A DNA stretch of 64,000 nt from an uncultured bacterium (GTDB lineage Bacteria > Omnitrophota > Omnitrophia > Omnitrophales > Abzuiibacteriaceae). The stretch spans positions 34,715 through 98,714 of the forward strand of contig CAYLXA010000011.1 in the NCBI GenBank assembly GCA_964387845.1, given 5' to 3'. Shown here one piece after another: positions 17,756 to 63,046 of the stretch (position 1 is its first letter; each line of letters begins with the position of its first letter). The translations under genes were made by a program, and so were the position numbers. The notes under the pieces are model-generated. The model made no database searches, was not told where the DNA came from, and saw only the letters and a program-made list of their open reading frames with translations.

Positions 17756-17828
<73 letters not shown>

Positions 17829-22753: not shown

Positions 22754-22770
22754 GAAAGCATCCGCCCGAT

Positions 22771-24578: not shown

Positions 24579-24623
24579 ACGCACCCATGTTAATTGTCAT
24601 CCATCCAAACCGTATTCATTAAC

Positions 24624-25655
24624 ATGGCGATCAAGAGCAAGACACCTAAAACTCCTAAAACATCGATTCCCAAGAGCCGTTTTACCAGTCTCATTCGGCA
24701 CTTCAACAAAAATCACCTCATCATTATCGGCGATTTCATATTAGATGAATTTGTCTGGGGAACGGTAGACCGCATTTCTCCCGAAGCGCCGGTTCCGGTT
24801 GTGCGTGTAGACCGTGAATCATTCATGCCGGGCGGGGCGCTCAATGTGGCGCATAATATCCGTTCGCTGAAAGGCATCGTGTATCCGTGCGGCGTCGTGG
24901 GCCGTGATCTTTACGGTAGAATGCTGCTGAAAGTTATGCGCCGCGAAAAAATCGAAACCGGCGGCGTGATTTACGATAAGGCCCGCCCGACAACCTTAAA
25001 AACACGTGTGATTGCGCATTCGCAGCAAGTGGTCCGCTTCGACCGCGAAAAGTCTGGGAATATCAGCGAAGCCGACTCCAAACAAATCCTCAAATTTGTC
25101 CGCGAAACTCTCAATCATTCACATGTTTTAATTATCGAAGATTACGGAAAAGGCGTTGTCACGCCCGAGCTTTTGCGTGAAATCATTCAACTGGCCCGTT
25201 CGCGTAAAGTTCCGATCCTGGTGGACCCAAAAGAGAAAAACTTTTCATACTATAGAGGCGTCACTGCCATTACGCCGAACAAAAAAGAAGCACTGGCGGC
25301 TTATGGCGCCCGAACTTCGGATGAACAACCGTCGCTCGAAAAAGTCGGCGAGCGGTTGCTTGAAAAATTTGAATGCGATGCCGTGTTAATGACGCTCGGC
25401 GAAGAGGGAATGATGCTGTTTGAAAAAAATGGCGACATCACGCGGATTCCGACCGCCGCGCGCGAAGTGTATGATGTTTCCGGAGCGGGCGACACCGTGA
25501 TTTCCGTTTTCGGTTTGGCATTGGCATCCGGCGCCACGATGAAAGAAGCCGCGTTTTTAGCGAACGCAGCCGCGGGCGTTGTGGTCGGCAAACTCGGAAC
25601 CGCAACACTTTCGCAGGAAGAATTGCTGGATGCGCTGAGCGGGAAAAGCACATGA
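24624..25655 (+). CDS. hldE: D-glycero-beta-D-manno-heptose-7-phosphate kinase (RfaE/HldE domain I only)
   Basis: Ribokinase-family sugar kinase with IIIGDFILDEFVWG and DVSGAGDTV motifs typical of HldE domain I. Lys/Pro-rich N-terminal extension. No adenylyltransferase domain follows. The start could alternatively be the TTG at 24594. Confidence 0.8.
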   Translation: MAIKSKTPKTPKTSIPKSRFTSLIRHFNKNHLIIIGDFILDEFVWGTVDRISPEAPVPVVRVDRESFMPGGALNVAHNIRSLKGIVYPCGVVGRDLYGRMLLKVMRREKIETGGVIYDKARPTTLKTRVIAHSQQVVRFDREKSGNISEADSKQILKFVRETLNHSHVLIIEDYGKGVVTPELLREIIQLARSRKVPILVDPKEKNFSYYRGVTAITPNKKEALAAYGARTSDEQPSLEKVGERLLEKFECDAVLMTLGEEGMMLFEKNGDITRIPTAAREVYDVSGAGDTVISVFGLALASGATMKEAAFLANAAAGVVVGKLGTATLSQEELLDALSGKST

Positions 25656-45773: not shown

Positions 45774-47063
45774 ATGTTGTTTCGCTTGTTGTACAAAGCA
45801 GCTCTTTGTTTATACGGTTTGGCTTACTTGCCTCATTTAATCATGCGGGCAAAGCAGGAGCCCGATCAAGGCCGCTTTTTGAAAGAACGGCTCGGAAATT
45901 TCGCGCAGGATTTCGGCGGTGCGCCGTGGATTTGGATTCATGCCGTCAGTGTCGGTGAAGCCATGGCGCTCCGAAAATTTCTCGAAAACCTGCAGGCGCG
46001 TTTTCCGGAGTTCCGGATTTTAATTTCGACCACGACGCCGACAGGCCAGAAAATCGCGCAAGGTTTTAAAAACGAAAAAATCCGCGTGGTTTATTTTCCG
46101 CTGGATTTCCGGTCAATGATGAAACGCGCAATTGATGCGGTAAAACCGCGCATGATTGTTTTGATGGAAACCGAAATTTGGCCGCATCTGATTGATTTGG
46201 CGCATGAACGGCGGATTCCGATCGGCATTATGAACGGACGGATTTCGGAGCGTGCTTTTAAGAAATACCGAAAGATTAAGTTCTGGATGTCGCCCATTTG
46301 CGCCAAGCTTTCATTTTGCCTGGTACGTGAAAACGGTGACCGGGAGCGTTTTCTCGAGCTGGGAGTTTCGGTGGATAAGATTCAAGTGACGGGCAATATG
46401 AAATATGACGTTGATGCGGAATTAGATGCAGCCGCGTTGCGTGAATTTCAGACAGCGCTCGGACTTCAAAATGAATTGCTTTGGACCTGCGGCAGTACGC
46501 ATGACGGGGAAGAGGCGGTTTTGCTCGAGGTATTTTCGAAATTAAAGGAGAAATTTCCGAAGTTGAAGCTGATTTTAGCGCCGCGCCATCCGGAACGTGC
46601 ACTTCAAGTATTAAATCTGGCAAAAAATGCCGGATTTCAAGCCGTGCTTTACAGCCGGAGGGAATCAGCTTTTGATGTGTTGGTGGTGGATCTTGTGGGG
46701 CTTTTGCAGAAATTTTATGCGGTATCGAATTTGGTGTTTGTCGGCGGAAGCTTGATTCCGCACGGCGGGCAAAACCCGATTGAGCCGGCTCGCGAAAGTA
46801 AGCCAGTGCTTTCCGGGCGCCATGTTCACAATTTTGAGCAAGTGTTCGAACAGTTGGAAAAATCCGGAGGTGCTGTTCTGGTTTCCGGATCGGAAGAATT
46901 ATACAAGCACGCTTTATCGCTTTTAACGGATCTGCCCAGAACGAAAGAAATGGGTGAGCGTGCTTACAAAACAGTTAACGGATTAAAAGGCGCTTCGCAA
47001 AGAAATTTGCAGGCCCTCGAACCTATTTTGCGTTCAGCAGAAAAACTTGAGGTGGTTACATGA
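45774..47063 (+). CDS. waaA: 3-deoxy-D-manno-octulosonic acid transferase (Kdo transferase)
   Basis: GT30: WIHAVSVGEAMA and GGSLIPHGGQNPIEPA motifs. Confidence 0.88.
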   Translation: MLFRLLYKAALCLYGLAYLPHLIMRAKQEPDQGRFLKERLGNFAQDFGGAPWIWIHAVSVGEAMALRKFLENLQARFPEFRILISTTTPTGQKIAQGFKNEKIRVVYFPLDFRSMMKRAIDAVKPRMIVLMETEIWPHLIDLAHERRIPIGIMNGRISERAFKKYRKIKFWMSPICAKLSFCLVRENGDRERFLELGVSVDKIQVTGNMKYDVDAELDAAALREFQTALGLQNELLWTCGSTHDGEEAVLLEVFSKLKEKFPKLKLILAPRHPERALQVLNLAKNAGFQAVLYSRRESAFDVLVVDLVGLLQKFYAVSNLVFVGGSLIPHGGQNPIEPARESKPVLSGRHVHNFEQVFEQLEKSGGAVLVSGSEELYKHALSLLTDLPRTKEMGERAYKTVNGLKGASQRNLQALEPILRSAEKLEVVT

Positions 47064-48094
47064 CGACAAAGAATTATTTTAAGTCAATTATTGAAGGCAG
47101 GCGCAACGACGCCGACGCTTCGTTCTGGAAACCCTTGCTGTCACTGGCAAGCCGTTTGTACCGGACGGCGGTCGAGGCGCGCAAGTCGTTTTACGACAAA
47201 AAAGTTTTCAAATCCAAAGCGCTTCAGATTCCGGTGATCAGTATCGGAAACATCACCTGGGGCGGCGTCGGGAAAACACCGCTTACGCAATACATCAGCC
47301 GGTTTTATTTGGACCAAAAGAAAACCCCGCTCATTTTAACGCGCGGTTACGGTAATGACGAAACGCGTGAGTTCCAGACCAAGGTTCCGGAAGCGCTTTT
47401 GGGCGTCGGTAAAAACCGTTTTGAAGTGGCCAGTCAGCTGCTCAAAAGCCAAAAAGCCGATGCTGCGATTTTAGACGACGGTTTTCAACATTACCAGCTT
47501 GCGCGCGACCTTGATATTGTGGTGATAAATGTGCTCAATCCTTTCGGAAATGAAAAACTCATTCCGCGCGGTATTTTGCGCGAACCGCTTGAAGCGCTTG
47601 ACCGGGCGAATATCGTTGTATTCAACGATGTGAATTTAATTTCGCGCAAATCATTCGAATCCATCCGCGACCGCGTGAAACAACTAGCGCCGCGCGCGGA
47701 ACTGATCGAAGCGCAGCATGAGCCGCTCTACTTTTATTGGGCAAAATCAAAAGCGCGCATGGACCTGAACAAGGTCAGCGGAAAGCCGGTTACGACATTC
47801 TCGGGCGTCGGAACCCCTCGGTCATTTCAGCTTTTGCTTAATTCCTTGGGCGTGAAAACCGTCCGGAATTTTGAATTTTGTGACCATCATCCGTTTTCGG
47901 AAAAAGAGCTCCAGGAAATTCAGGAGGTCAAACGGTCAAGCCAGTCCGAGTTTGTCATCACGACCGAAAAAGACCTTCTCAGAAAAGAAGAGCTGATCAC
48001 AAACATCCTAGATCCGCTGGTTTTAAAAATTTCGATGCGCATCACGGTCGGGGAATCGATTTTGCAGGACCGTTTGCGGCACATTTTGCGTTAA
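47060..48094 (+). CDS. lpxK: tetraacyldisaccharide 4'-kinase
   Basis: P-loop GNITWGGVGKTP. ATGA overlap with waaA. Confidence 0.88.
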   Translation: MTTKNYFKSIIEGRRNDADASFWKPLLSLASRLYRTAVEARKSFYDKKVFKSKALQIPVISIGNITWGGVGKTPLTQYISRFYLDQKKTPLILTRGYGNDETREFQTKVPEALLGVGKNRFEVASQLLKSQKADAAILDDGFQHYQLARDLDIVVINVLNPFGNEKLIPRGILREPLEALDRANIVVFNDVNLISRKSFESIRDRVKQLAPRAELIEAQHEPLYFYWAKSKARMDLNKVSGKPVTTFSGVGTPRSFQLLLNSLGVKTVRNFEFCDHHPFSEKELQEIQEVKRSSQSEFVITTEKDLLRKEELITNILDPLVLKISMRITVGESILQDRLRHILR

Positions 48095-48107: not shown

Positions 48108-50051
48108 TTGTTCGATTCACTGGCTTATCATACGGTTAAAATTTTCGCGGGGTTTATCCAGCGCATGCCGGTCGGTTTTAATTTTTTTCTGGCCGGTATT
48201 TTGGGGAATCTCGCGTATTTATTGGATAAACGGCGCTACGTGGCTTATGCCAATCTGAAGGCCGCCTTCGGTACCGAATGGACGCCGCGTGAAATCAGGG
48301 CGATTATCCGGAAAAGCTACGTCCATTTTGCGAAAACTATGATGGAAATTCTTTATTTTCCAAAAATGGATAAAGCTTATATCGAAAAATATATTCAAAT
48401 GAATAATCCCGAGTTTTATCAAGAGGGTGTCAGCGGTAAAAAAAGCACTATTTTTATGATGGCACACTTTGGCAATTGGGAGCTTGCGCAAATTTATTCC
48501 GGCATTCTAGACAAACCGCTTCATATTTTTGCGCGTGATCAAAAGCACACCCGCTTGAATGATTTTTTAAATCAACTCCGCGCCGCGCACGGCGCCCAAA
48601 CCATTTCAACCTCACGGGTCCGCGAACTTATGCGGGCCATTCGGGAGAAAAGGGCCATCGGCGCTTTGGGCGATCAGGGCGGCGGGCCGGATGGAGTTAT
48701 CGCGCCGCTTTTTGGGCGCAAAGCCACATTTCCGAGAGGGCTGGTTTCGCTTGCCGCGAGAATGGGAGCATCGATTGTGCCTGCTTTTATGATTCGCCAA
48801 AATGGCCCGTATCAGCTGATCCAGGTTTTTCCGCCGCTTAATTTAATTCAGACAGGCAATCAGGAAAACGATGAAATTAAGAACAATCAGCTCTTTTTAA
48901 ATCACCTGGAAAAAATGGTCCGGCAATATCCGGAACAGTGGTTATGGCAGTATAAATGGTGGAAATTTTCCAGGACCAAGAAAGTTTTGATTTTGGAAGA
49001 TACGAAAGCCGGCCATGCCGCACAGGCGCGCGCGATCGGCCGGGAATTTGAGAGACTGGCCAAAGAATTGCCCGAGGGTTATGAAATCAAAACCGAATAT
49101 GTGAAGGTTGAATTTAAAAACAAACTGGCTTCGATTCTATTTTTTCTCGACTCGTTTTTCTTTTACCCTTTTGCGCAAAGCCGGCTTTGGATTATGAAAT
49201 GGTATTTGAAGCCGTCTTCGTTCGAAAAAATCAAAAATGTGCATGCGGACGCCGTTGTGGCCTGCGGCTCCAAATTAACACCGGTTGCGTTATGGCTTTC
49301 GCGAGAAAATTTGGCCAAAACGGTTATCGTGATGAAACCTTCGTTCCCATACCAATTTGCGCATTTTGACCTTGTGATTTTGCCGAAGCATGACCATGCC
49401 GGGAATTTGAAGTCTCATCATATCCGGACCACGGTTGCGCCGAATCTGTCGGATATCGATCATTTGAATCACCACCGGCAGAAATTGGCGGATGTTTTGC
49501 ATCTCAACGGAAAATCAAGGCTTTCGATTTTTATCGGCGGTGACTCCAAATCATACAAATTGGAGAAGTCAAAGATGGAAAATTGGCTGAATACTTTGGC
49601 CGAGCTCAGCCGGAAAAAACATATGGAGTTTATGATCACAACATCGCGCAGGACAGGCGCCGGCATTGATGCGCTTGTCCGAGAAAAAACGGCGAAAAAT
49701 CCGAATTGTAAGTTGATGGTGATTGCAAACGAGAAAAATATCGAAGGCATTACTTACGGGATGCTCGCTTCTTCCGATGTGGCGGTTGTGACCGAAGACA
49801 GCGTATCGATGATTTCGGAAGCTTTGAGCGCGGGGAAGCGCGTGATTGTGCTCAAGGCCGGAAACGGCCAATTACCGCGTAAACACCGTGAATTTCAGGA
49901 ACTTTTGGCGAGCGAGGGTTTAATCGAAGTGGCAACTGCCGATGATTTTTCTGTTAAATTCGAAACTGCTCAAAAACACGGAGCAAATACAAATTTGATC
50001 GAAGCAGAACGAAAATTAATTCGGGATGAGCTCAGAAAAATTTTAATCTAG
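48108..50051 (+). CDS. fusion protein: N-terminal LpxL/HtrB-family lipid A late acyltransferase (~290 aa) plus a C-terminal ELM1/DUF1022-like domain (~350 aa)
   Basis: TTG start with AAGGAG 9 nt upstream. The N-domain has HFGNWE and a WLWQYKWWK ending typical of Lip_A_acyltrans. The C-domain has IFIGGDSKSYK and ITTSRRT motifs like ELM1-family proteins. Confidence 0.7.
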   Translation: MFDSLAYHTVKIFAGFIQRMPVGFNFFLAGILGNLAYLLDKRRYVAYANLKAAFGTEWTPREIRAIIRKSYVHFAKTMMEILYFPKMDKAYIEKYIQMNNPEFYQEGVSGKKSTIFMMAHFGNWELAQIYSGILDKPLHIFARDQKHTRLNDFLNQLRAAHGAQTISTSRVRELMRAIREKRAIGALGDQGGGPDGVIAPLFGRKATFPRGLVSLAARMGASIVPAFMIRQNGPYQLIQVFPPLNLIQTGNQENDEIKNNQLFLNHLEKMVRQYPEQWLWQYKWWKFSRTKKVLILEDTKAGHAAQARAIGREFERLAKELPEGYEIKTEYVKVEFKNKLASILFFLDSFFFYPFAQSRLWIMKWYLKPSSFEKIKNVHADAVVACGSKLTPVALWLSRENLAKTVIVMKPSFPYQFAHFDLVILPKHDHAGNLKSHHIRTTVAPNLSDIDHLNHHRQKLADVLHLNGKSRLSIFIGGDSKSYKLEKSKMENWLNTLAELSRKKHMEFMITTSRRTGAGIDALVREKTAKNPNCKLMVIANEKNIEGITYGMLASSDVAVVTEDSVSMISEALSAGKRVIVLKAGNGQLPRKHREFQELLASEGLIEVATADDFSVKFETAQKHGANTNLIEAERKLIRDELRKILI

Positions 50052-50061
50052 AGGAAACCTC

Positions 50062-52233
50062 ATGAGAGTACTTCAAGTATTGCCGGAACTGAATGTGGGC
50101 GGGGTTGAACGCGGCGTGATTGACCTTGCGCGCGCCATGAAAAAACACGGCGAAGAAATTCATGTGATGTCGCGGGGTGGTGCGCTTGTCCAGGAACTCG
50201 TGAAGATGGGCGTGCCGCATTATGCGCTGCCGGTTCACGATAAATCAATTTGGTCATTGCGCCTCGTGAAGGAAATCGCAAAAATCATCGAACGTGAGCG
50301 CATCGACATCGTGCATGCCCGAAGCCGCGTGCCGGCTTGGCTTGCATATCTGGCAGCACGCCGCACGAATTGCGATTTTATTACGACCTGCCACGGTTAT
50401 TATTCGAAGCATTTTCTAAGCCGCATCATGGGCTGGGGAAAGCGCGTGATTGTAATCTCGCACAGCATCGGCCGCCGCATGATCGATGATTTTCACGTGC
50501 CGCCCGAGCGGATCCGTCTCATCCACCGCGGCGTAGATTTAACGCAGTACACATTTTCACCCGAAAAATATCTGAAGCCGGCCGGCGAGAAATTCAAAAT
50601 CGTCAACATCGGCCGCATCACGCCCATCAAAGGCCAGAAGGAGTTCATCCAGGCGATTCATCTCCTGAGCAAACAAATTCCGAATGTGGAAGCTTGGATT
50701 GTTGGTTCGGCGGATGACCGGAAAATGGAATATTTCGAAGAGCTGAAACTTTTTGTCGAACGGACCGGCATGACCAAGCACGTAAAATTCTTGGGAACGA
50801 GGCGCGATATTCCGGAGCTTTTGCGCGAGGCCGACCTACTGGTGCTTTCCACGAAAATTCCGGAAGCATTCGGGCGCGTGATCATTGAGGCAGGGGCAGT
50901 CGGGACAGCGGTGTGCGCATCGCGAATCGGCGGCATTCTCGATATCGTTGAAGACGGCAAAAACGGGCTTCTTTTTTATCCGCTTCACATCGAAGAAATG
51001 GTCAAAGCGATGACACAGCTGCTCAAAAACCGGAAGCAATGCTACGACTTCGCGCACAAGCTCCGCGAGAAAGTCGAGCGTGAATTCAGTCTCGAGCAAA
51101 TGGTCGACAAAACACTCGAAGTTTACCGCGAAACCCGTCAGGAGCGCAGGATTTTGATTATTAAACTTGGCGCGGCAGGCGACCTGGTTTTGGCGATACC
51201 AAGTTTCCGCATGCTGAGGAAAAAATTTCCGAATGCGCACATTTCACTTTTGGTTGATTCAAAATTGACCTCGCTCGTAGAAAATTGCCCCTATATTAAT
51301 GAAGTGATCGCTTATGACCGCGGCGAAAAAACAAACCGGCTGCGAAGGCTTCTGAAACTTTCGAAAAGCCTGGCTGAGCGGCGCTTTGATTTGTCGATCG
51401 ACTTACAGAATAACGCCAAAACGCATTTAATCAGCTTCCTGGGCCGTATCCGCAACCGAATCGGGTACTTGAGGGGATGGAGCGGCCATTTGCTCAGCAA
51501 GCCCGTGTTAGAGCCCAAGCAGCTTTTGGCGCCGATTGAACATCAGTTCGAGCTCCTGAAACGTGTCGGAATCACACAGCTCGATACCGAAATGGAATTG
51601 TGGCCGACGGAACAGTCGGAAAAGTTTGCGGAAGAGCAATTGAATACAAACCAGCATTCACATCAGCCGCTTGTCGGCTTTGTGATGGGTTCAAGTCCGG
51701 GTTGGCCCACAAAACGCTGGCCGGTAGAACATTTCCGAGAGCTTGCGGAACGCATTGTGCAGGATTTAGACGGTAGAGTCGTCCTTTTGGGCGCGCCGGG
51801 CGAGGAAGGCCTTGCGGATGTATTTAAAAATCATTCTCTGGGCACAGACCGCCTCATTAATTTGATCGGAAAAACCACTTTTTCGGATATGGCAAGCGTG
51901 ATCAAGAGGTCGAATGTATTGGTATCCGGCGATAGCGCACCCATTCACATTGCGGCTGCTACGAAAACAAAACTCGTCGCCTTTTTTGGGCCCACGGAGC
52001 CTAAGCGCCATTTGCCGCCCGGTGCCGATCACGCGGTTTTGGTGCGGCGGATTCCGTGCCAGCCGTGTTACTCGGGCCATTGTAAAAACCCGGATACGTT
52101 GGAATGCCTCAAAAAAATAAAAGTAAACGAAGTATTTGAGCAAGTGAAATATCAGCTTGCATCCGCACAAAAGAGCCGCGCGAAGCATGACGCTTCGGAA
52201 GATAAGGTCGGCACGCCGGCGGAATCCGTTTAG
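50062..52233 (+). CDS. fusion protein: N-terminal GT4-family glycosyltransferase (RfaG-like) plus C-terminal GT9 heptosyltransferase domain
   Basis: The N-domain has the EX7E motif (EAFGRVIIEAGAVGT). The C-domain starts RILIIKLGAAGDLVLAIPSF and ends with the Cys-rich CQPCYSGHC segment. Confidence 0.75.
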   Translation: MRVLQVLPELNVGGVERGVIDLARAMKKHGEEIHVMSRGGALVQELVKMGVPHYALPVHDKSIWSLRLVKEIAKIIERERIDIVHARSRVPAWLAYLAARRTNCDFITTCHGYYSKHFLSRIMGWGKRVIVISHSIGRRMIDDFHVPPERIRLIHRGVDLTQYTFSPEKYLKPAGEKFKIVNIGRITPIKGQKEFIQAIHLLSKQIPNVEAWIVGSADDRKMEYFEELKLFVERTGMTKHVKFLGTRRDIPELLREADLLVLSTKIPEAFGRVIIEAGAVGTAVCASRIGGILDIVEDGKNGLLFYPLHIEEMVKAMTQLLKNRKQCYDFAHKLREKVEREFSLEQMVDKTLEVYRETRQERRILIIKLGAAGDLVLAIPSFRMLRKKFPNAHISLLVDSKLTSLVENCPYINEVIAYDRGEKTNRLRRLLKLSKSLAERRFDLSIDLQNNAKTHLISFLGRIRNRIGYLRGWSGHLLSKPVLEPKQLLAPIEHQFELLKRVGITQLDTEMELWPTEQSEKFAEEQLNTNQHSHQPLVGFVMGSSPGWPTKRWPVEHFRELAERIVQDLDGRVVLLGAPGEEGLADVFKNHSLGTDRLINLIGKTTFSDMASVIKRSNVLVSGDSAPIHIAAATKTKLVAFFGPTEPKRHLPPGADHAVLVRRIPCQPCYSGHCKNPDTLECLKKIKVNEVFEQVKYQLASAQKSRAKHDASEDKVGTPAESV

Positions 52234-52235
52234 CA

Positions 52236-53249
52236 ATGGTCATTATTTGCGTCCTCAAGAATTGGCTCGGCGATGTGATTTTCACATCGCCTGCGCTCCG
52301 GACGATCCGGATGAATTATCCGGCCGCACAGATTATTTGTCTGGCGCCCAAACGCTGCTCGGATATTTTGCGGGCAAACCCCAATGTGGACGAAGTCATT
52401 TCATTTGACGAACGTAGCGAACAAAAAAGTTTATCGGAAAAATGGAAGCTGATTTTAAAGCTGAGGCGGTTTAAGCCGGATCAAGTTTATTTGTTTCACA
52501 GGTCGCTCACGCGCGCATTTTTGATGTTCCTGACCGGCGCTAAGGAGCGGATCGGGTATGCCGGCAAGCGCGGTTTTCTATTAACAAAAGCAGTTGCCGA
52601 GCCCAAAGAAAGAATGCACGCGGTTGATTATAATTTAGAGCTTTTGCGAAGAGCCGGATTTCAAGTCACGGGAGATGCTCTCTATGAATTCCGCTTTGAC
52701 AAGAAAGATTTGGAAAACGCGAAAAGAATCATTACGGAAGCGGAATTGGGCCATGAACGGATTATCGCGATTCACCCGGGCGCCAATTGGCCGCCCAAAC
52801 GCTGGCCAATCGAGCATTTCCGCGCGTTGTCACTTGAGCTGACGCGCCGTTACCGGGTGTCGGTTGTGATTACGGGCGGCGCCGATGACCGCGAAGCGGC
52901 CGAGAAAATTGCGGCTGATGCCAGTCATCCGAACATTCGGTCACTTGCCGGAAAAACAAGCTTAAAAGAGCTCGGCGCATTATTTTCACTTTGCACGCTT
53001 ATGATTTCTTCCGATTCGGGGCCGCTTCATATCGCAGGCGGCGTCGGTACAAACGTGCTCGGCATTTTCGGGCCTACGAATCCTGCGCTCACCGGCCCTC
53101 GGGGCAGGGGTAAAAATGTGGTCATTCATTATGTGCCGAAAGGAATGAAATCGCCTTGGTTTGGTGACGAATTTCCTCAGTCCGGCTGGATGGAATTAAT
53201 TACGGTCAATGAAGTTTTACAGACTATCGAACGGGAAAGGCTTTTGTAG
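52236..53249 (+). CDS. GT9 family ADP-heptose:LPS heptosyltransferase
   Basis: VLKNWLGDVIFTSPALRTI start and the C-terminal GPLHIAGGVGT motif. Confidence 0.8.
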   Translation: MVIICVLKNWLGDVIFTSPALRTIRMNYPAAQIICLAPKRCSDILRANPNVDEVISFDERSEQKSLSEKWKLILKLRRFKPDQVYLFHRSLTRAFLMFLTGAKERIGYAGKRGFLLTKAVAEPKERMHAVDYNLELLRRAGFQVTGDALYEFRFDKKDLENAKRIITEAELGHERIIAIHPGANWPPKRWPIEHFRALSLELTRRYRVSVVITGGADDREAAEKIAADASHPNIRSLAGKTSLKELGALFSLCTLMISSDSGPLHIAGGVGTNVLGIFGPTNPALTGPRGRGKNVVIHYVPKGMKSPWFGDEFPQSGWMELITVNEVLQTIERERLL

Positions 53250-53250
53250 G

Positions 53251-54183
53251 ATGGATCTTTCAAAGGTTGAAAAAATCTTGGTCGTGACGCTGAGTAATTT
53301 GGGCGATATTGTGCTCACGACACCGGTGATGGCAGCGCTGCGCGACCGATTTCCAAAAGCATTTATGACAGTTATTGTCGGGCCAAAAGGCAAAGACCTT
53401 TTAGCCAACAGCGCGACGATCAACGAAATTTTGATTTATGATAAAACGAAGCCGCTTTTCGAAAGGGCGAAATGGGTCTTGGAACTTCGGAAACGGAAGT
53501 TCGATCTTGCCGTCGACCTTCGCAATACAGCAATCCCACTGCTTGTCGGCGCACGATATTTTAACAGCATCTTTTTTGATCATCGCGAAAAGCGAGCCCG
53601 GAAAAAGCATTTAAGCCGGATTCAATTTTTGGGGATCGGAGAGCCGAAGAGCCGGTTTCAATTTTTTACGCCGGATGAAGAAAAATCGGCGCTTGCGAAA
53701 TTGAGAAAAGCCGGTGTGTTCAATGAATCTTGGATTGCGATTGTGCCGGGCGCGGCCAACCATTTGAAGCGCTGGCCGTATGAGCGTTATGCTGAAATAG
53801 CAGCTCACTTTAAACAGAAAGGATTTCAAACGGTTATTGTGGGAAGCGGCGCCGAACGTGCGATGGGCGACCTGGTTGCTAAGTGCAATCCGGGCATTGG
53901 CATTATCAATGCCTGCGGTTCATTTGAGATCCGCGAGGTGGCAGCTGTTCTGAGTCATTCGAAATTGATTGTATGCAACGACAGCGGCCTGATGCATTTG
54001 GCAAATGAGCTTGATATTCCTGTGGTTGCTATTTTTGGGCCCACGAATCATTTGCAATACGGTAAGTTTGGCCCTAAAAACCGGGTGGTTCACGGCGACG
54101 GCAGCCAGTTTTCTATTCATCAAATCAAAACTCCGGATGTTGTCCGCGCGTGTGAGGAATTATTAAATGGCGCCCAACATTAA
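53251..54183 (+). CDS. GT9 family heptosyltransferase
   Basis: ILVVTLSNLGDIVLTTPV start and GLMHLANELDIPVVAIFGPT motif. Confidence 0.8.
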   Translation: MDLSKVEKILVVTLSNLGDIVLTTPVMAALRDRFPKAFMTVIVGPKGKDLLANSATINEILIYDKTKPLFERAKWVLELRKRKFDLAVDLRNTAIPLLVGARYFNSIFFDHREKRARKKHLSRIQFLGIGEPKSRFQFFTPDEEKSALAKLRKAGVFNESWIAIVPGAANHLKRWPYERYAEIAAHFKQKGFQTVIVGSGAERAMGDLVAKCNPGIGIINACGSFEIREVAAVLSHSKLIVCNDSGLMHLANELDIPVVAIFGPTNHLQYGKFGPKNRVVHGDGSQFSIHQIKTPDVVRACEELLNGAQH

Positions 54184-55231
54184 CCCGGGAAAAATCAAAC
54201 GCATTTTGCTGGTTCGTACAGACCGCATTGGTGATGTGGTGGTCACAACGCCGGTTTTTCGTGCCGTTAAGGAACAATTTCCAGCCGCACATCTTGCCAT
54301 TCTCGTCGACAAAGCGCTTCGCGATTTGGTGGAAGGACATCCGGATTTAGATGAAGTTATTTTGTATGATAAAAAAGGAAGCGAAAAAAGTTTGCTGGGA
54401 GCTTTCCGCTTTGCTCGTACTTTAAAACAAAAAAAGTTTGACGCTGCCATTCATTTTCATCCGCGCGCCCGCGCATACTGGACAAGTTTTCTGGCCGGCA
54501 TTCCGGTTCGAATCGGATACAAAAGAAAGAACCATTGGCTGCTTACGCATTCGATCAAAGACAATAAGGGCGAAGGGAGAAAGCATGAAGCGGAGTATGT
54601 TTTTGATTTGCTGGCACTTTTAGGAATCAAGCGCCCCCAAAAACTGATTGCTAGCATACCGCTTCAGGAAAAGAGCCAGGAAAGTGCAGAGCGGCGCTTG
54701 AGCGGCATCGGCCGGTTTTTTGCAGTCCACCCGAGCGCCAGTTCGCCGTCTAAAATTTGGCCGGCTTCGTATTTTGCGGAAGTCGCGGATTTTTTAGCGC
54801 AAAAATTTCAGCTGACACCGGTTTTAATCGGCGGAGCTTCGGATTCGAAGCAGGGCAAAACCGTTTTCAGTTTGATTAAATCAAAATCGATTAACTTGTG
54901 CGGCCAATTAAGCTTGGGTGAATTGGCCTGGGTGCTCAAAAAATCCGAATTGGTGATTTCGAATGACTCCGGGCCAGCACATATCGCTTCTGCGGTCGGA
55001 GCGCCCGTCATTTCCATTTTCGGCCGAAGTTTGGCCGGCCTCGGGCCTGTGCGCTGGCATCCGCTCAATGAAAAGAGCTGGTATCTGCAGAAAGACGTGG
55101 GCTGTGCGGTTTGCCTTGCGGATTTATGCCAGATTGAGTTTAAATGCCTGACCGAATTAAAGCCTGCGGATGTGATTCAATTGATCGAAGAAAAACAAAG
55201 CGAGATTTTTCAGCATGCAAAAGCCCGTTAA
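54167..55231 (+). CDS. GT9 family heptosyltransferase
   Basis: ILLVRTDRIGDVVVTTPV start and GPAHIASAVGAPVISIFG motif. Confidence 0.8.
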   Translation: MAPNINPGKIKRILLVRTDRIGDVVVTTPVFRAVKEQFPAAHLAILVDKALRDLVEGHPDLDEVILYDKKGSEKSLLGAFRFARTLKQKKFDAAIHFHPRARAYWTSFLAGIPVRIGYKRKNHWLLTHSIKDNKGEGRKHEAEYVFDLLALLGIKRPQKLIASIPLQEKSQESAERRLSGIGRFFAVHPSASSPSKIWPASYFAEVADFLAQKFQLTPVLIGGASDSKQGKTVFSLIKSKSINLCGQLSLGELAWVLKKSELVISNDSGPAHIASAVGAPVISIFGRSLAGLGPVRWHPLNEKSWYLQKDVGCAVCLADLCQIEFKCLTELKPADVIQLIEEKQSEIFQHAKAR

Positions 55232-56366
55232 ACGAGTGCTTCTCATTCATCCTTTCGGAATCGGCGATGCGCTTTTCATGACGCCCGTGATTGATGCGTT
55301 GAAGCAAGCCGGTGCCGAAAAAATCGATTTGCTTTTGGGCAGCCGGACAAAAGCCGTTTTTGAGCATAACCCGTCCGTTGATGAAATTTTCGTTGTTGAC
55401 CGAGACAAGATCCGGAGCCAGTCAACATTCCGTAATATTTTGGAAACAGCGAAACTGGTTCTTAAACTCCGGAAAAACCGGTATGACCATCTGTTTGATT
55501 TCTCTTTGGCGCGGCAATACGCATTTTTTGCTTTTTTATTTCTCAACATTCCGAAACGCATCGGATTTCATTATAAAAGGCGCGGCATTTTCCTGACACA
55601 CAGGATGGTTCTCGAGAAAAGTTTTTCCGGCAAGCACGTGATTGAATATTATTTAGAACTTTTGAAATTCGTCTCTATCCGGCCGTCTACGCGCTCGATC
55701 CAACTGTCCATCACAAAAGAAAATGAAGACGAAGCAGAGGGTGTTCTACGCAAAGAAAACGTTCCGCCATTTTTTGCCGTTGCGGTCCCGGGCGGCGGCG
55801 AATCCTGGGGGAAAGATGCCCGGCTTAAGCGGTGGCCGACGGCGCATTTTGCGAAATTGTTTGAACTTATCGACAAAGACAAAAGTTTAGGATCGGCGCC
55901 TTTCAAAGTTGTTATTTTGGGCGGCAAAAGTGAATCGGAGCTTGCCGAATCTCTAAAAGCTTTGAACCCCGGCCGCTTTATTAATTTAGCGGGGAAGCTG
56001 CCGCTTCTTGCTTCGGCGGCGGTTTTAAAACGCGCACGGCTTCTTGTGGCCAACGACGGCGGTTTGGTGCATGTCGCAGCGGCCGTTGGGACGCCCACGA
56101 TTGCTTTATTCGGGCCGGTTGACCCGAAAGTTTACGGCCCGTATCCGCTTCACCCGGCGCGTATCGCAGTCACAAACGACGGACCGGAATGCCGTCCGTG
56201 TTATCAAAATATGCGTTATAATAGCGCCTGTGAACATGTGGAATGTTTAACCGGACTTTCGCCGGACGGTATTTTTTACCGGCTCAGTGAGTCCGGATTT
56301 TTTGAACGAATTCAAAAAGCGCCGGTTTCTGCGGCAGCCGATACTCATTTATATGAAAATCAATAA
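55215..56366 (+). CDS. GT9 family heptosyltransferase
   Basis: VLLIHPFGIGDALFMTPV start and GLVHVAAAVGTPTIALFGP motif. Cys-rich ECRPCYQ segment. Confidence 0.8.
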   Translation: MQKPVKRVLLIHPFGIGDALFMTPVIDALKQAGAEKIDLLLGSRTKAVFEHNPSVDEIFVVDRDKIRSQSTFRNILETAKLVLKLRKNRYDHLFDFSLARQYAFFAFLFLNIPKRIGFHYKRRGIFLTHRMVLEKSFSGKHVIEYYLELLKFVSIRPSTRSIQLSITKENEDEAEGVLRKENVPPFFAVAVPGGGESWGKDARLKRWPTAHFAKLFELIDKDKSLGSAPFKVVILGGKSESELAESLKALNPGRFINLAGKLPLLASAAVLKRARLLVANDGGLVHVAAAVGTPTIALFGPVDPKVYGPYPLHPARIAVTNDGPECRPCYQNMRYNSACEHVECLTGLSPDGIFYRLSESGFFERIQKAPVSAAADTHLYENQ

Positions 56367-57159
56367 GATTTGGTGGCTTATTATTTTGTCATTGGCGCTC
56401 AGCGCATGCGCCCATAGACCGCGCGCCGTTCAATTTCCGAGTAAAATTGAAAAGCCGAAATTTACGATCCCGCTCGGTGAAAAAATCAACTACAGTATCC
56501 GCTGGCTCGGCTTTGAAGTGGGCACCGCGCAAACGGAAGTGAAGGAAATTGTGCAGATTAACGGCCGCGATGCTTACCACGTCGAAGTGAAAGTACGCTC
56601 GAATCGGCTGATCAGCTTGATTTATCCGGTCCGCGACGAACACCATAGTTACATTGATGTCGAACATCTTTACTCGCTTCGCTATGAGAAAAAGTTGAAA
56701 GAGGGAACCTACGAAGCAGATGATTTAATCGAATATGACCAAATTAATCACAAGGCGCGTTACGAGTCGCGCAGAAACGGGACGATCAAAGAAATGCTGA
56801 TTCCAAAAGACGTTCAGGACCAGCTTTCGTGCACATATTGGTTCCGCATGCAGGAAATGAAGCCCGGCGACCGGCTCCAAATTCCGGTCAATGTCGACGA
56901 GAAAAACTGGAATTTGGAAGTTCAAGTGCAGGCATGGGAAGAGCTGGAAGTCGACGGTTTTGGCCGGGTAATTGCAATCCGCGCAGAACCTTTGGCTCGG
57001 TTTCACGGCTTGTTTGTCCGGAAAGGGCGCGCCTGGGGCTGGATGGGAACGGACCATAGGCGCATTCCGCTTTTAATGAAAACCGAAATTCCGATTTTAG
57101 GTTCGATTGAAATGGTAATTACGGAATACAAGTACGGCGATGACCACATCAAAGCATAA
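56353..57159 (+). CDS. DUF3108-family lipoprotein
   Basis: Start at the ATG that yields the lipoprotein signal MKINKIWWLIILSLALSAC, with lipobox LSAC. Beta-rich body. Confidence 0.65.
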   Translation: MKINKIWWLIILSLALSACAHRPRAVQFPSKIEKPKFTIPLGEKINYSIRWLGFEVGTAQTEVKEIVQINGRDAYHVEVKVRSNRLISLIYPVRDEHHSYIDVEHLYSLRYEKKLKEGTYEADDLIEYDQINHKARYESRRNGTIKEMLIPKDVQDQLSCTYWFRMQEMKPGDRLQIPVNVDEKNWNLEVQVQAWEELEVDGFGRVIAIRAEPLARFHGLFVRKGRAWGWMGTDHRRIPLLMKTEIPILGSIEMVITEYKYGDDHIKA

Positions 57160-57979
57160 AAAGAAACATCAGAAACTCATCAAGAAGCGCGGCCGCCGCC
57201 GTTTTCGCGCGCAGGTTTTGCTGTGGATCGCGGCGTTTTTGGCCGCATTTTATCTTTTCACATTCCGCGAAATTCCGGTCTTGATGTATCACTTTATCGG
57301 GACCGAAGCCGAAGCGCGCGAGAACTCTTTGATTGTTTCCGCCAAAACGTTTGACCAGCAGCTTTCTTGGCTTCGTCAATGGGGTTATCGGATTTACTCG
57401 TTGGAGGAATATGAGGCGCTCAGGGCTCACCGTTCGTTTTCTTTCGAAAAGGGTGTTGTGATTACGTTTGATGACGGCAATATCGGATTCTTGACGAATG
57501 CGCTGCCGATTCTCGAGAAATACCAAGCGCCTGCAGCCAATTTCATGGTGACTGATAGCATGCGCAAAAAAACAAACGGCAGCGTGTCGGTGGAAGATGC
57601 GCGCAAACTTGCCGAAAATCCGCTGATTACGCTAGGGTCCCACACCGTTCATCACGTCGGTTTGATGGACCAATCAGAGCTTGCGCTTCGGAAAGAAATA
57701 GCGGGTTCACGGCGCGAACTTTCGAAAATGCTCGGCAAAGACATTGCCTATTTTGCGTACCCGGGCGGATTTTTTGACGAAGAAGCGCTTGAGATGGTCA
57801 AATCGGCCGGTTATCGGCTGGCATTTACGACTTCGTGGAAGCGTTTGAAAGGCGACCAGGAAAATGCGTATTCAATCGTGCGCGTGAAGGTAACCGAAAA
57901 AGACAGAAATCCGGCCAACTTTTGGTACAAAATATCCGGCTTTTACACGCTCTTGAAACGGCTGCAGAACGCATTTTAG
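57140..57979 (+). CDS. polysaccharide deacetylase (CE4 / NodB homology domain) with an N-terminal membrane anchor
   Basis: VITFDDGN (Asp-Asp metal motif) and the LGSHTVHH His motif. N-terminal TM segment. Confidence 0.75.
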   Translation: MTTSKHKKKHQKLIKKRGRRRFRAQVLLWIAAFLAAFYLFTFREIPVLMYHFIGTEAEARENSLIVSAKTFDQQLSWLRQWGYRIYSLEEYEALRAHRSFSFEKGVVITFDDGNIGFLTNALPILEKYQAPAANFMVTDSMRKKTNGSVSVEDARKLAENPLITLGSHTVHHVGLMDQSELALRKEIAGSRRELSKMLGKDIAYFAYPGGFFDEEALEMVKSAGYRLAFTTSWKRLKGDQENAYSIVRVKVTEKDRNPANFWYKISGFYTLLKRLQNAF

Positions 57980-58936: not shown

Positions 58937-61900
58937 ATGAATTCGACCCTTGCTAATCGTTCAGAAACCGGAAGTTTTTCGCGAAGTAAAAACCACCGGC
59001 CCCTCTTTGTTCTTATTTTTCTTTACGCTATGTTTTTCCTGGTTTCGAAACCATCCTTTGCCGACACCATTGTTCCGGGCGGGAATATTTCATCTAACAT
59101 AACCTGGACTTCCGCCGGAAGTCCGTACATTGTTCAGGGTAGTATCACGGTTAGTTCGGGCACTTTAACCATTGAACCGGGTGTTGTCGTAAAAGCAGAG
59201 CCAAATGCAAACGTAGAAATCCGGACTTCCGGTGGAAAACTTTTTGCGGAAGGAACGTTAGAAGAGCCAATTTTGTTTACTTCAAACAGCGCAAATCCTT
59301 CCCCGGGCGAGTGGAAAGGCATTTTCTTTGATGGAGGCACCGCGACCGATTCGTCTCTTAAGCACTGCACAATTGCCTATGCTCAGAATGGAATCCGAAT
59401 TAGTCAAAATGTTTTTATGTTTGTGCAAAACACCACGTTTCAAAACAATTCAAGCGTTGCTGTTTCAGCGCCTACTCTCAAAGAAACCCGTAATTTCGGC
59501 TCTGGAAACACTTATATTGGAAATGGCAGAGATGCAATTGAGTGGACTGCTACCTTAACCGCTACGGTCGATCAAGATATGACACTTGCCAGTCAAGGTG
59601 TCCCGTATATTGCGAATGGGAGTATCAACGTAGCTCGTTTTGTTGGTCTTTCGACTATGACTGTCCAGCCTGGTGTTGAAATCCGATTTAAACCGAATCA
59701 AAATCTAAAATTTGAAGTTGGCGGAGGTGGTTGGCAGGGCAGAGTACTTTTTCAAGGCTCGCAAGCTCAGCCGATCCGTTTAACAGTTGATAGCCAGAAC
59801 CCTACGCCCGGAAGCTGGCAGGGAATTCGGTTTGACACTGGAGCACAGCCAGGTTTTATCCTAGATTATGTCATTTTTGAATATGCCGGCGCCCCCGCTG
59901 TTAGTGTTCCGCAGGATCTTGGTTTTTATACCATCTCCCATTCTACTATTCGTCATTCATCCGGAATCGGCGTATCTTTAAGAGGGAATGGCGCGTTACA
60001 AAATAACATTATAGAAAATAATGGCGGTCAAGGAATTGAAATTTTATCCGGTTCACCATCCATCCTATCCAACACGGTTCAACAAAATGCATCAACGGGT
60101 CTTTTGATGCAATCAAATGCGGGAACTCCATTAATTGATGACAACCATTTTCTGAATAATGGAAGCCGAGCTGCGAACATCTATTCATTAAGGCAAATTC
60201 GCAATATGACTCAGAATAATACTTTTTCCGGAATAACCAATCCAATTTGCCAATGTATTGAATTTATGAATACGGCACCTACTTTGATTAATTATGATAC
60301 GACACTTTATGATTTTACTTACCCTTATGTGTTTAATGGAAGTATCCAGGTTTATCGGGAAGTTCCTCCACATTCAACATTAACCATTCAACCTGGAACC
60401 GAACTTAAATTTAAGCCAGGCCAGAATTTAATCCTCGGAATTGGATATAGACCCAACCAGTATGTGGGCGCTTTAGTTGCTTTAGGCGATGATCAAAATC
60501 CTATTCGTTTTAGTTCTGCTGCTGCAGTGCCGGCACCCGGCGATTGGCAAGGGTTGAAATTGGAAGGATTTATGATTCCCGATCAAATGTCCAATGTGAT
60601 AGTTGAGCATGCCGGAAATGCCGGTATTACCGTATGGGATACGCATCTTGAAATTAACAATTCGACCATCCAAAATAATTCCGGCGATGGTATGCAAATC
60701 GTTGGTTCCGGCCAGCTGGATGTGAAAAACACTTCATTTCTCTCTAACGGATTAAAAGCCATTAATCATACAGGATCTTCCGGCGCGGTACTCGCTCCGC
60801 TTAATTGGTTCGGAAGTTCGAACGAGCCATCCGCACAAGTTTCAGGTAGTGTTCAATATGAACCTTGGCTTATTTCAGCACCAACGACGCCGTTTCAATG
60901 GACAGCGGCCAATCTTTCATCCAAACAGTTTAATCCCGACGAAAGTTCGGCAACATTTCAATTTAGTCATCCGGAAGCTGCCAATTGGATGCTTGAAATT
61001 TTAAATTCAGACCTCAGCCAGGTACTAAAAACGATCAAGGGGCAAGGCCCGAATCCGTCCATTATTGAATGGAATGGAAATGATGATAGTAAAGAATTTT
61101 TGCCGGATGGTATGTATAAGTATCGTTTTAGCGGCTCAAGCCAAATAACCAGCCAACAGGCTGCGCCTGCGTTGGGCAACATTCAATTAAATAATGCGTT
61201 GCCTGCGGCGGAAATTATTTTGCCGACCGCTTCTCAAATTATTCCCGGCCATACAATTGTGCAAATCCAAGGAACTGCTCAAGGAAAGGGTTTCACCAAT
61301 TACACAGTCGAACGTTTTGATACGTTTCAGCAAAACAATTTTGTCCAAATTGCGGCAAGTACTTCTCCTGTTTCGGACGGTGTGCTGGCCAATTGGGATA
61401 CCGGAAATTTAGCCAACCCCATTTTCAAAACTTTGCGTTTAAGCGTTAATAATAATGCTTCTCATACCGCATTTGTTGAAATTCCGGTGACCATTTTTAA
61501 TATCTTTAATATTGCAAGTTCTCAAGGTTTTATTTCACCCAACGGCGATGGCTTGTTTGAATCCACGACAATTTCTGCAAACAGCACTTTAACTGCGGAT
61601 TGGTTGCTCCAAATTAAGAATTCTGTTAATCAAGTTGTTCGAACCGTTAATGCTGCCAATGAATCATTTTTCTCATTCGAATGGAATGGCAAGGACGACA
61701 GCAATGTTTTATTGCCTGACGGTGTTTATACCTATCATTTTACAATCACAGAGCCTGACTCGGGAGTGAATGTGCCTGCACAGCAAGGTCCGAGCGTTAT
61801 TGTCATCGATACAACAGTGCCGCAGCTTGCGATAAGCGATCCACAGATAGATCAGGTAGTTTTTGGGCTTTCATTTCCTGTAATCGGCACCGTGAGTGAT

Positions 61901-63046
61901 TTGAATATTCTTAGTTACAAAATGTTTTATGCAAATGCCGAAAATCCGAACAATTTTATTCAGTTTGCAAATGGTTCTTCAAACGTAAACAACAGTTTGC
62001 TTGGCGTCTGGACAAATTTAATCAATTTGACCAATGGCGGATACATAATCCAACTGCAGGCGACCGATCGAGGCGGCAATACAGCCGAAATTTTTGTGCC
62101 GGTTCAGCTTGACAATATCACCATTACGAATGTTGATCGTGCGCCGCTATTTTTTGATCCGCTCAATAGTGAAACAACCCAGATTTCTTATGCAATTAAC
62201 CATGATGCTTTTATAACGATCAGGATTTTTACCGAGACAAACGGTCAATTGGTTCGAACTTTGGTTAACCAAGCTCCCAAAAAAGCCGGTACCAATTTTG
62301 ACGTTTGGGACGGCCGCAATAACTCCAACCAACCGATTCCTTATGAAGCGTATTATTTCCGAATTGATGCTGAATCTCAAGCCGGAGAAGGCCGTCATGG
62401 TCAATTTGTTGATGTATTTGGCGGGTCGCCCGGGCCTAATGATTTTGAAGTTAATTTGCAAAATCTAGATTTTAATCCTTATCAAAATGAAGAATTGCTC
62501 ATTCAATACCCGGTGCATGCTCCCGGCCGTCAATTGGTGGAAATTCGTCAGGGGAATACCGCGACACGGCTTCGATTAATTGTGGAGAACGAGCCAAAAA
62601 TTCAAGGTTTAAGAACGGACAGATGGGACGGCCGCGATGATAATGGAAATATTTATTCCGGCTCTTATCATCTCTTTTTTGGAATCGCAGTTCCATTTCG
62701 CAGCAAAACCATTATTCTCAAAAACACACTTCCGGCACCTGACAATCTTTTATCAGAACCTTACTTGATCATTCCCGCATACGCTGGAGTGAGCAGCTTG
62801 CAATATGATTTATCCGAAGAATCCGGTGTTACAGTTATCGTGAAGGATTCCTTAGGTAATTATGTCAGAACTTTACTGGATCAAGTGGTTCAAGCAGCGG
62901 GAAATTACTCTGTGCTATGGGACGGAAAAAATGATTTAGGCGAATTTATTTCGGGGACCGGCAATTATTATTTCTACGTTCAAGCGGCACGGTCAGGCTC
63001 AAGCGAATCAGTTCAGGCGATAGGGAATATTCGGGTGCAAAATTGA
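58937..63046 (+). CDS. 1369-aa secreted surface protein: signal peptide, ~650 aa of right-handed parallel beta-helix repeats (pectate-lyase/NosD-like), then five FlgD-Ig-like domains
   Basis: Signal peptide LFVLIFLYAMFFLVSKPSFA. Recurring beta-helix turns (NNSGDG, GNGA, TIQNN). Five modules with the W-x-G-x-D...G-x-Y signature (EWNGNDDSKEFLPDGMYKY, FEWNGKDDSNVLLPDGVYTY, VWDGRNNSNQPIPYEAYYF, RWDGRDDNGNIYSGSYHLF, LWDGKNDLGEFISGTGNYYF). Confidence 0.8.
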   Translation: MNSTLANRSETGSFSRSKNHRPLFVLIFLYAMFFLVSKPSFADTIVPGGNISSNITWTSAGSPYIVQGSITVSSGTLTIEPGVVVKAEPNANVEIRTSGGKLFAEGTLEEPILFTSNSANPSPGEWKGIFFDGGTATDSSLKHCTIAYAQNGIRISQNVFMFVQNTTFQNNSSVAVSAPTLKETRNFGSGNTYIGNGRDAIEWTATLTATVDQDMTLASQGVPYIANGSINVARFVGLSTMTVQPGVEIRFKPNQNLKFEVGGGGWQGRVLFQGSQAQPIRLTVDSQNPTPGSWQGIRFDTGAQPGFILDYVIFEYAGAPAVSVPQDLGFYTISHSTIRHSSGIGVSLRGNGALQNNIIENNGGQGIEILSGSPSILSNTVQQNASTGLLMQSNAGTPLIDDNHFLNNGSRAANIYSLRQIRNMTQNNTFSGITNPICQCIEFMNTAPTLINYDTTLYDFTYPYVFNGSIQVYREVPPHSTLTIQPGTELKFKPGQNLILGIGYRPNQYVGALVALGDDQNPIRFSSAAAVPAPGDWQGLKLEGFMIPDQMSNVIVEHAGNAGITVWDTHLEINNSTIQNNSGDGMQIVGSGQLDVKNTSFLSNGLKAINHTGSSGAVLAPLNWFGSSNEPSAQVSGSVQYEPWLISAPTTPFQWTAANLSSKQFNPDESSATFQFSHPEAANWMLEILNSDLSQVLKTIKGQGPNPSIIEWNGNDDSKEFLPDGMYKYRFSGSSQITSQQAAPALGNIQLNNALPAAEIILPTASQIIPGHTIVQIQGTAQGKGFTNYTVERFDTFQQNNFVQIAASTSPVSDGVLANWDTGNLANPIFKTLRLSVNNNASHTAFVEIPVTIFNIFNIASSQGFISPNGDGLFESTTISANSTLTADWLLQIKNSVNQVVRTVNAANESFFSFEWNGKDDSNVLLPDGVYTYHFTITEPDSGVNVPAQQGPSVIVIDTTVPQLAISDPQIDQVVFGLSFPVIGTVSDLNILSYKMFYANAENPNNFIQFANGSSNVNNSLLGVWTNLINLTNGGYIIQLQATDRGGNTAEIFVPVQLDNITITNVDRAPLFFDPLNSETTQISYAINHDAFITIRIFTETNGQLVRTLVNQAPKKAGTNFDVWDGRNNSNQPIPYEAYYFRIDAESQAGEGRHGQFVDVFGGSPGPNDFEVNLQNLDFNPYQNEELLIQYPVHAPGRQLVEIRQGNTATRLRLIVENEPKIQGLRTDRWDGRDDNGNIYSGSYHLFFGIAVPFRSKTIILKNTLPAPDNLLSEPYLIIPAYAGVSSLQYDLSEESGVTVIVKDSLGNYVRTLLDQVVQAAGNYSVLWDGKNDLGEFISGTGNYYFYVQAARSGSSESVQAIGNIRVQN

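Follow-up and report, generated by a model that had tools for sequence, protein, structure and literature searches.

What do five consecutive heptosyltransferase-like modules, the first of them joined to a glycosyltransferase of another family, do for an uncultured bacterium of the phylum Omnitrophota (family Abzuiibacteriaceae)? They are encoded at positions 50,062 to 56,366 of a 64,000-nucleotide stretch of DNA (assembly GCA_964387845.1, contig CAYLXA010000011.1, positions 34,715 to 98,714, forward strand), and this whole stretch is called the window here. As judged from sequence comparisons, the region is probably the glycosyltransferase half of a lipid A–core operon for lipopolysaccharide (LPS), carrying out sequential, ADP-heptose-dependent extension of the core. 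The modules of glycosyltransferase family 9 (GT9) are designated G1 to G5 in array order, G1 being the C-terminal half of a 723-residue fusion protein whose N-terminal half belongs to family GT4. The genes from waaA, for the transferase of 3-deoxy-D-manno-oct-2-ulosonic acid (Kdo), through that of a polysaccharide deacetylase are tightly packed on the plus strand between 45.8 and 58.0 kb. They are given below with Pfam and other profile matches (E, expectation value), followed by the hldA gene, which lies apart from them.

45774..47063, plus strand: waaA (Kdo transferase), at the head of the lipid A–core operon; PF04413, E 1.3e-58
47060..48094, plus strand: lpxK (tetraacyldisaccharide 4'-kinase); PF02606, E 3.7e-70; TIGR00682, 150.1 bits (cutoff 91.95)
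48108..50051, plus strand: 647-residue fusion of an LpxL-like late acyltransferase (residues 12–286; PF03279, E 1.5e-40) and Elm1 (residues 301–610; PF06258, E 3.2e-53)
50062..51135, plus strand: GT4 module, residues 1–358 of the 723-residue bifunctional protein; PF13439, PF00534
51136..52233, plus strand: G1, GT9 module, residues 359–723 of the fusion protein; PF01075, E 3.2e-36
52236..53249, plus strand: G2, stand-alone GT9, 337 residues; PF01075, E 2.4e-39
53251..54183, plus strand: G3, stand-alone GT9, 310 residues from the orthologue-supported start; PF01075, E 1.4e-30
54167..55231, plus strand: G4, stand-alone GT9, 354 residues; PF01075, E 5.1e-36
55215..56366, plus strand: G5, stand-alone GT9, 383 residues; PF01075, E 1.3e-31
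56353..57159, plus strand: DUF3108 predicted lipoprotein, end of the array; PF11306, E 1.4e-33
57140..57979, plus strand: polysaccharide deacetylase (carbohydrate esterase 4 type); PF01522, E 1.4e-24
24594..25655, plus strand: hldA (heptose-7-phosphate kinase); TIGR02198, 391 bits (cutoff 345)

The sequence-only reading had described five GT9 domains encoded back to back, and the profile searches bear this out. Five consecutive plus-strand open reading frames (ORFs) match PF01075 (Glyco_transf_9) with 125.3 (G1), 135.6 (G2), 106.9 (G3), 124.7 (G4) and 110.2 bits (G5), E ranging from 1e-30 to 1e-39. The gathering score of this family is 22 bits, and none of the five proved to belong to a family other than GT9. 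The match of G3 is confined to the C-terminal lobe (C-lobe), residues 154–296. No GT9 ORF beyond these five is present in the 64-kb window. The waaA product scores 362.8 bits against NCBIfam NF004388, under the 438-bit cutoff.

The residues of WaaC that take part in catalysis or contact ADP-heptose are D13, K192, E222, D261 and H266, and the signature is D(T/S)(G/A)xxH (PMC3559599). Equivalents of all of these residues, with E or D at position 222, are kept in all five GT9 modules, and the key-residue motifs hold over 41–83 orthologues per subfamily. The signature reads DSAPIH in G1, DSGPLH in G2, DSGLMH in G3 and DSGPAH in G4; that of G5, DGGLVH, is off the consensus at position 262, and DGG is found in 38 of 41 G5 orthologues. 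A second short motif is PKRWP in G2, LKRWP in both G3 and G5, and SKIWP in G4. The N-terminal lobe (N-lobe) of G3 is shortened and divergent, with alignment gaps near the regions of WaaC K98 and R120, and G3 is the fastest evolving of the five (54% identity to the orthologue in the related locus L001, compared with 64–82% for the others). Of the five, G3 and G5 are the strongest candidates for an unusual specificity. The net charge of the N-lobe is +8 to +10 in all five modules, which fits anionic, lipid-linked acceptors; used as a discriminator for HepI, it makes no candidate stand out.

The hldA gene of the window is located 25 kb upstream of the array and precedes kdsB-pyrG-kdsA-kdsD. In 49 other Omnitrophota loci, an hldA homologue is found within 10 kb downstream of the array, and in L005 (17126–18142) it follows the array directly. 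By contrast, hldD, for the ADP-heptose epimerase, was seen near the array in only one of about 80 loci, L054, where it lies inside the array (16490–17467), and none was found near the array of the window. Searches by phmmer with E. coli GmhA, GmhB, the adenylyltransferase half of HldE, and WaaL gave nothing within 10 kb of the arrays. LPS-core heptosylation is the natural reading of the locus, because the array has a lipid A–core operon context and a linked heptose-7-phosphate kinase gene. Since the key residues are also kept, ADP-heptose-dependent core extension is the best supported of the explanations weighed below.

In the pathway that we propose, WaaA, LpxK and the LpxL-like protein with its Elm1 extension, all encoded just upstream, would make Kdo–lipid A. 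The core would then be extended, on the cytoplasmic side of the inner membrane, by a retaining GT4 module together with five GT9 enzymes that are not redundant, each GT9 enzyme most likely moving a heptose from ADP-heptose onto a different acceptor (Kdo, heptose or hexose). The predicted core would carry up to five heptoses and at least one hexose-type residue, and a heptose-rich or branched core is plausible. Here we infer the heptose donor for all five enzymes, the LPS acceptor and the order of action.

The fusion protein (50062–52233) is encoded in an uninterrupted frame, in which PF13439 matches residues 12–161 (E 1.4e-30), PF00534 matches residues 174–333 (E 1.3e-33), and the GT9 part spans residues 363–696 in Pfam. 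There are more than 120 full-length homologues, with identities of 50–100%. Where a source is named, it is Candidatus Omnitrophica or Omnitrophota in nearly every case, and most of the homologues are named 'lipopolysaccharide heptosyltransferase II' by NCBI. With each GTDB species represented by a single genome, a scan found relatives in at least 563 genomes, the best 80 of which are Omnitrophota-titled or untitled metagenome-assembled genomes (MAGs), save a few labelled Planctomycetia. The GT4+GT9 architecture of about 700 residues recurs in hundreds of independent assemblies. The open frame, the full-length homologues and the breadth of relatives together show that the fusion is no artefact of assembly or frameshift, and the bifunctional protein of the sequence-only reading, with complete GT4 and GT9 modules, is real.

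The GT4 module has the features expected of CAZy family GT4 (retaining, GT-B), namely PF13439 with PF00534, an EX7E motif and a GT-B fold match, and the EX7E glutamates E268 and E276 are invariant among 65 homologues. An AlphaFold2 model of the whole fusion protein, with 65 homologues as input, was obtained at good confidence, with a predicted local distance difference test score (pLDDT) of 90.2 and a predicted template modelling score (pTM) of 0.81. In this model, the last GT4 helix (344–360) continues straight into the first GT9 strand (363–367). The GT4 half superposes on GT4 structures with target-normalised template modelling (TM) scores of 0.79–0.86, the matches to 7MI0, HepE and BshA reaching 0.82–0.86, and the G1 half superposes on 3TOV (0.86) and 1PSW (0.81), giving a GT-B fold for the G1 model. 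The sequences of G2–G5 can be aligned over their full length with 1PSW and 3TOV. Both modules together are covered by no solved chain, the query-normalised TM being at most 0.45. To call the GT4 half RfaG-like, as had been done, is too specific. Only its donor-binding lobe, residues 144–319, aligns to WaaG, at 27% identity, and the E-value is 7e-6 for PDB 2IV7 against 1.4e-44 for 7MI0; by its sequence, the module is not a WaaG orthologue.

The junctions of the array are close, but the overlap of start and stop codons described along it is seen at only two of those between its genes. G3/G4 and G4/G5 overlap by 17 nucleotides each, but the fusion gene and G2 are separated by a 2-nucleotide gap, and G2 and G3 do not overlap. 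The start of G3 is probably at 53251 (MDLSKVEKILVV, with GGGAAAGG upstream), 1 base past the G2 stop, rather than at 53209, where the longest ORF begins, because its orthologues are 312–313 residues long with the same start. The DUF3108 gene probably starts at 56353, overlapping the G5 stop by 14 nucleotides, and the N-terminus of its product, MKINKIWWLIILSLALSAC, is a signal peptide with a lipobox. ORFs on the minus strand within the array region have no Pfam matches, and we reject them as shadow ORFs rather than real genes. A promoter and terminator scan of 44.5–59 kb gave nothing beyond expectation (13 promoters, compared with 14.1 expected from shuffled sequence, and 29 terminators, compared with 25).

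Which heptosyltransferase is which? Against the HepII model TIGR02195 (cutoff 134.6 bits), G1 (170.6), G2 (148.6) and G4 (143.0) score above the cutoff, and G3 (109.1) and G5 (127.8) below it. Three paralogues of one operon cannot all be HepII, so this model does not discriminate in the phylum. The scores with the enterobacterial HepII model NF008162 are far under its cutoff. None of the five reaches the cutoff of the HepI/WaaC models (TIGR02193, 68–93 bits against 185.3; NF008204) or of the HepIII/WaaQ models (TIGR02201, 99–131 bits against 170.2; NF007742). Profiles of the five subfamilies, scored against E. coli WaaC, WaaF, WaaQ and WaaU, show weak preferences of G1 and G2 for WaaF and of G3 and G4 for WaaQ, with a tie for G5.

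The array is old. G1–G5 are 22–30% identical to one another, whereas positional orthologues are 38–82% identical, and this shows that the array is not a recent duplication; recent tandem duplication was rejected on the same identities. The proteins of the window score 366–508 bits against their own subfamily profile and 135–240 bits against the others. The GT9 proteins group by array position in a neighbour-joining tree, a simple distance tree without support values, used for grouping only. On these comparisons, there are five ancient subfamilies with their order retained across Omnitrophota, and the idea of recently recruited paralogues is not borne out. In related loci, annotated with profiles that drew on the window and on three relatives, the commonest order is waaA-lpxK-(LpxL+Elm1)-(GT4+G1)-G2-G3-G4-G5-DUF3108. 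Among 63 loci that span the whole array, all five subfamilies are present, in the same order, in 41, four in 17 and three in 2; the other 3 either lack the array or have it cut short behind the fusion gene.

The surroundings are conserved to different depths. The waaA gene is syntenic in nearly all related loci, and the LpxL+Elm1 fusion gene stands directly 5' of the GT4-GT9 gene in nearly all of those that reach that far. In most related loci, the DUF3108 gene comes after the final GT9 gene, and the linkage of a lipoprotein to LPS core genes is thus a conserved one. A sequence search of the PDB gave no relatives for the Elm1 half (PF06258, 'mitochondrial fission ELM1') or for the DUF3108 protein. 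The polysaccharide deacetylase gene follows DUF3108 in L001–L003 and is absent in L005, its conservation at this place being limited to closer relatives. In the more divergent lineages, an extra stand-alone GT4 gene lies between the GT4-GT9 fusion and G2, and some of these lineages are also without G3 or G5. The extra GT4 and the loss of G3 or G5 imply that the core structure is probably variable within the phylum. The loci with the extra GT4 gene are:

L053, L054, L059, L063–L072, L074–L076, L078, L079, L081, L082, L084, L086 and L087

The GT4+G1 fusion is near-universal among related loci, and it is not the only one. Adjacent GT9 genes are fused in frame in at least 17 fully covered loci, G2+G3 (about 700 residues) in 8, G3+G4 (about 670–740 residues) in 8 and G4+G5 in 1, and G3+G4 is spread over two separate clades in a tree of the fusion protein, again a neighbour-joining tree without support values. 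Examples of GT9-GT9 fusions are:

L018, 12069–14165
L022, 6788–8842
L074, 11527–13572
L077, 13649–15877
L037, 14226–16622

By Rosetta-stone reasoning, neighbours that become fused would handle successive intermediates or belong to one complex. This suggests that adjacent genes catalyse adjacent steps, and the enzymes may be a physically coupled assembly line.

A four-cysteine motif (CxxC...C...C) is encoded in the C-lobe of G1 (52057–52107), G4 (about 55130–55190) and G5 (about 56200–56270). In G1, the cysteines are C666, C669, C674 and C682, and they are invariant. The motif is present in 83 of 83 G1 orthologues, 38 of 41 for G5, 43 of 64 for G4, 40 of 66 for G3 and 0 of 75 for G2; the window's own G3 does not have it, nor do E. 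coli WaaC, WaaF, WaaQ and WaaU. By analogy with the iron finger of TibC, which is similarly placed, the motif may bind Zn or Fe.

How unusual is such a set of enzymes? The sequence-only reading had put five GT9 enzymes well beyond a usual two or three, and this contrast does not hold. The annotated GT9 set of E. coli K-12 numbers four, WaaC (HepI), WaaF (HepII), WaaQ (HepIII) and WaaU (HepIV). For Actinobacillus pleuropneumoniae, CAZy lists five GT9 enzymes, a sixth heptosyltransferase is also present, and the core contains five heptoses (PMC3559599). Five GT9 genes are therefore a high number but not an unprecedented one. The E. coli enzymes share with G1–G5 the GT9 family, the GT-B fold, the catalytic and ADP-heptose-contacting residues, linkage to waaA and a presumed Kdo–lipid A acceptor. 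However, they are just 13–27% identical to G1–G5, with no one-to-one orthology, and the Omnitrophota five are contiguous, one of them fused to a GT4 module and three with the cysteine motif.

The genomes of A. pleuropneumoniae and Aeromonas have five or six heptosyltransferases each, and their cores contain about 5 heptoses including D,D-heptose (PMC3559599). These sets (WaaC, WaaF, WaaQ/WahF, WahE, WahD/WasD, WahC) resemble the Omnitrophota array in the number of enzymes and in the D(T/S)(G/A)xxH signature with subfamily variants. Their genes, to judge from the locus tags, are scattered over several loci and unfused, whereas those of Omnitrophota form one conserved operon with recurrent fusions, and K192 is retained in all five Omnitrophota modules, which is a further difference. 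In enterobacteria, WaaF is followed by WaaG, the GT4 glucosyltransferase that acts on HepII, so that GT9 and GT4 steps are again consecutive, and the GT4-G1 fusion would join such a pair covalently in one chain. The GT4 module has as its closest solved relatives an uncharacterised GT4 from Rickettsia africae (7MI0), HepE and BshA. TibC and AAH, which are GT9-like, likewise depend on ADP-heptose, and their C-lobe has an inserted metal finger of four cysteines. They differ in that the cysteine spacing is shorter in the Omnitrophota enzymes, which have no N-terminal β-barrel or β-hairpin thumb, and in that the context is LPS and not an autotransporter.

Several points weigh against ADP-heptose-dependent core extension by all five enzymes. 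The equivalog models leave the linkage specificity of G1–G5 unassigned. WaaC was never the top-scoring enzyme for any subfamily profile, so no candidate for the Kdo-glycosylating enzyme emerges from the profiles, and that enzyme need not be a GT9 protein. The DGG of G5 and the truncated acceptor lobe of G3 could mean altered specificity. Near the array, gmhA, gmhB, hldC and, in the window, hldD were not seen, so that the gene neighbourhood accounts for only part of the ADP-heptose pathway. CAZy family GT9 includes a non-heptose activity. Literature searches on Omnitrophota and heptose, heptosyltransferases or LPS turned up no description of the operon and no biochemical or structural LPS data, and the main genomic survey of the phylum makes no mention of LPS, lipid A or glycosyltransferases. 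In one alternative, the set would build an LPS core, but at least one paralogue, most likely G5, G3 or both, would have switched its donor to ADP-D,D-heptose or a non-heptose sugar, leaving the core less heptose-rich than the domain count suggests. We consider this unlikely, but a serious alternative. In its favour, the DGGxxH of G5 is close to the signature of WahC, a D,D-heptosyltransferase, which reads D(T/G)(G/S)xxH, the divergent N-lobe of G3 lies outside the coverage of the Pfam GT9 model, and the epimerase gene hldD is so rarely near the array. However, the heptose-contacting K192, D261 and H266 (WaaC numbering) are kept in all five modules, position 192 is not R or N as in known D,D-heptosyltransferases, and hldA is tightly linked to the array.

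A different acceptor is much less probable. In that case, some of the GT9 enzymes would carry out protein O-heptosylation in the manner of TibC and AAH, or would serve a heptose-containing capsule or glycan. The cysteines of G1, G4 and G5 are placed like Cys339/342/358/370 of the TibC iron finger, and a 1369-residue β-helix surface protein is encoded 2.5 kb downstream. However, the TibC/AAH model TIGR04414 is hit by G3 alone, with 31.3 bits against a cutoff of 200, and all five modules, of 310–383 residues, align with WaaC from their N-termini and have no room for the N-terminal β-barrel of about 97 residues in TibC. Furthermore, the genes are co-oriented and translationally coupled amid lipid A genes, and the β-helix gene is not conserved beside the array in relatives. 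We give almost no credence to an assembly or frameshift artefact, to decaying pseudogenes or to recent tandem duplication. Direct support for these was not found, the nearest being the GT4-G1 gene of L039, which is split in two and shows that frameshifts occur in such MAGs. Against them stand the independent fusion homologues, the uninterrupted ORFs, the invariant catalytic residues and the low identity among the paralogues. ADP-heptose-dependent extension of the LPS core thus remains our preferred explanation. A bolder form of it, which we regard as speculative and rather improbable, would make the GT4 and five GT9 modules a physically coupled, possibly metal-finger-mediated line that builds an oligo-heptose ('heptan-like') core specific to the phylum. 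One or more of the paralogues (G5 or G3) would then have a donor stereochemistry or acceptor unseen in characterised GT9 enzymes, and the fusions would be snapshots of the complex.

Outside this region, the window is ordinary chromosome, with topA, a xerC/D-like gene, dprA, aro and ilv genes, kdsA, kdsB, kdsD, pyrG, lpxB, msbA, rpsB-tsf-pyrH and leuS; lpxB, msbA and the three kds genes are thus present in the window apart from the array. Other features of the window are:

58937–63046, plus strand: the 1369-residue protein, which combines right-handed β-helix and NosD-like repeats with three Ig-like domains of the FlgD type and, internally, a CHU_C domain for type IX secretion sorting
4542–6621, minus strand: lpxB (TIGR00215, 311.7 bits), overlapping by about 130 nucleotides a gene for a Gfo/Idh/MocA oxidoreductase that resembles UDP-N-acetylglucosamine 3-dehydrogenase (226.8 bits, under the 450-bit cutoff)
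12074–13552 and 17756–17966: four tRNA genes, with a gene for a GT87-family membrane glycosyltransferase (12338–13552) right after two of them
20702–23661, plus strand: a GH35/GH42 β-galactosidase-like protein, then a homologue of the XrtA/PEP-CTERM system-associated ATPase (300.8 bits, just under the 324.5-bit cutoff)

The pairing of lpxB with the oxidoreductase gene may hint at a lipid A backbone of the 2,3-diamino-2,3-dideoxy-D-glucopyranose (GlcN3N) type.

In its architecture, the operon is a variant, specific to the lineage, of a well-known system. What is particular here is that all five GT9 genes are contiguous, that the arrangement is conserved phylum-wide, and that the genes readily become fused, both among themselves and with GT4. 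Nothing is overturned, since the chemistry is expected to be as in known LPS core biosynthesis. For annotation, the result means that HepII is assigned too often in Omnitrophota by the NCBI 'heptosyltransferase II' equivalog model. The heptosyltransferases of the GT-B fold are antibiotic targets, and the natural GT4-GT9 and GT9-GT9 fusions could help to show in what order such enzymes act, how substrates are channelled and how acceptors are recognized. Omnitrophota are a widespread phylum of ultra-small bacteria, many of which are thought to be host-dependent, and to our knowledge nothing is known experimentally of their cell envelope. For these organisms, the phylum-wide operon with five GT9 modules predicts a heptose-rich LPS core.

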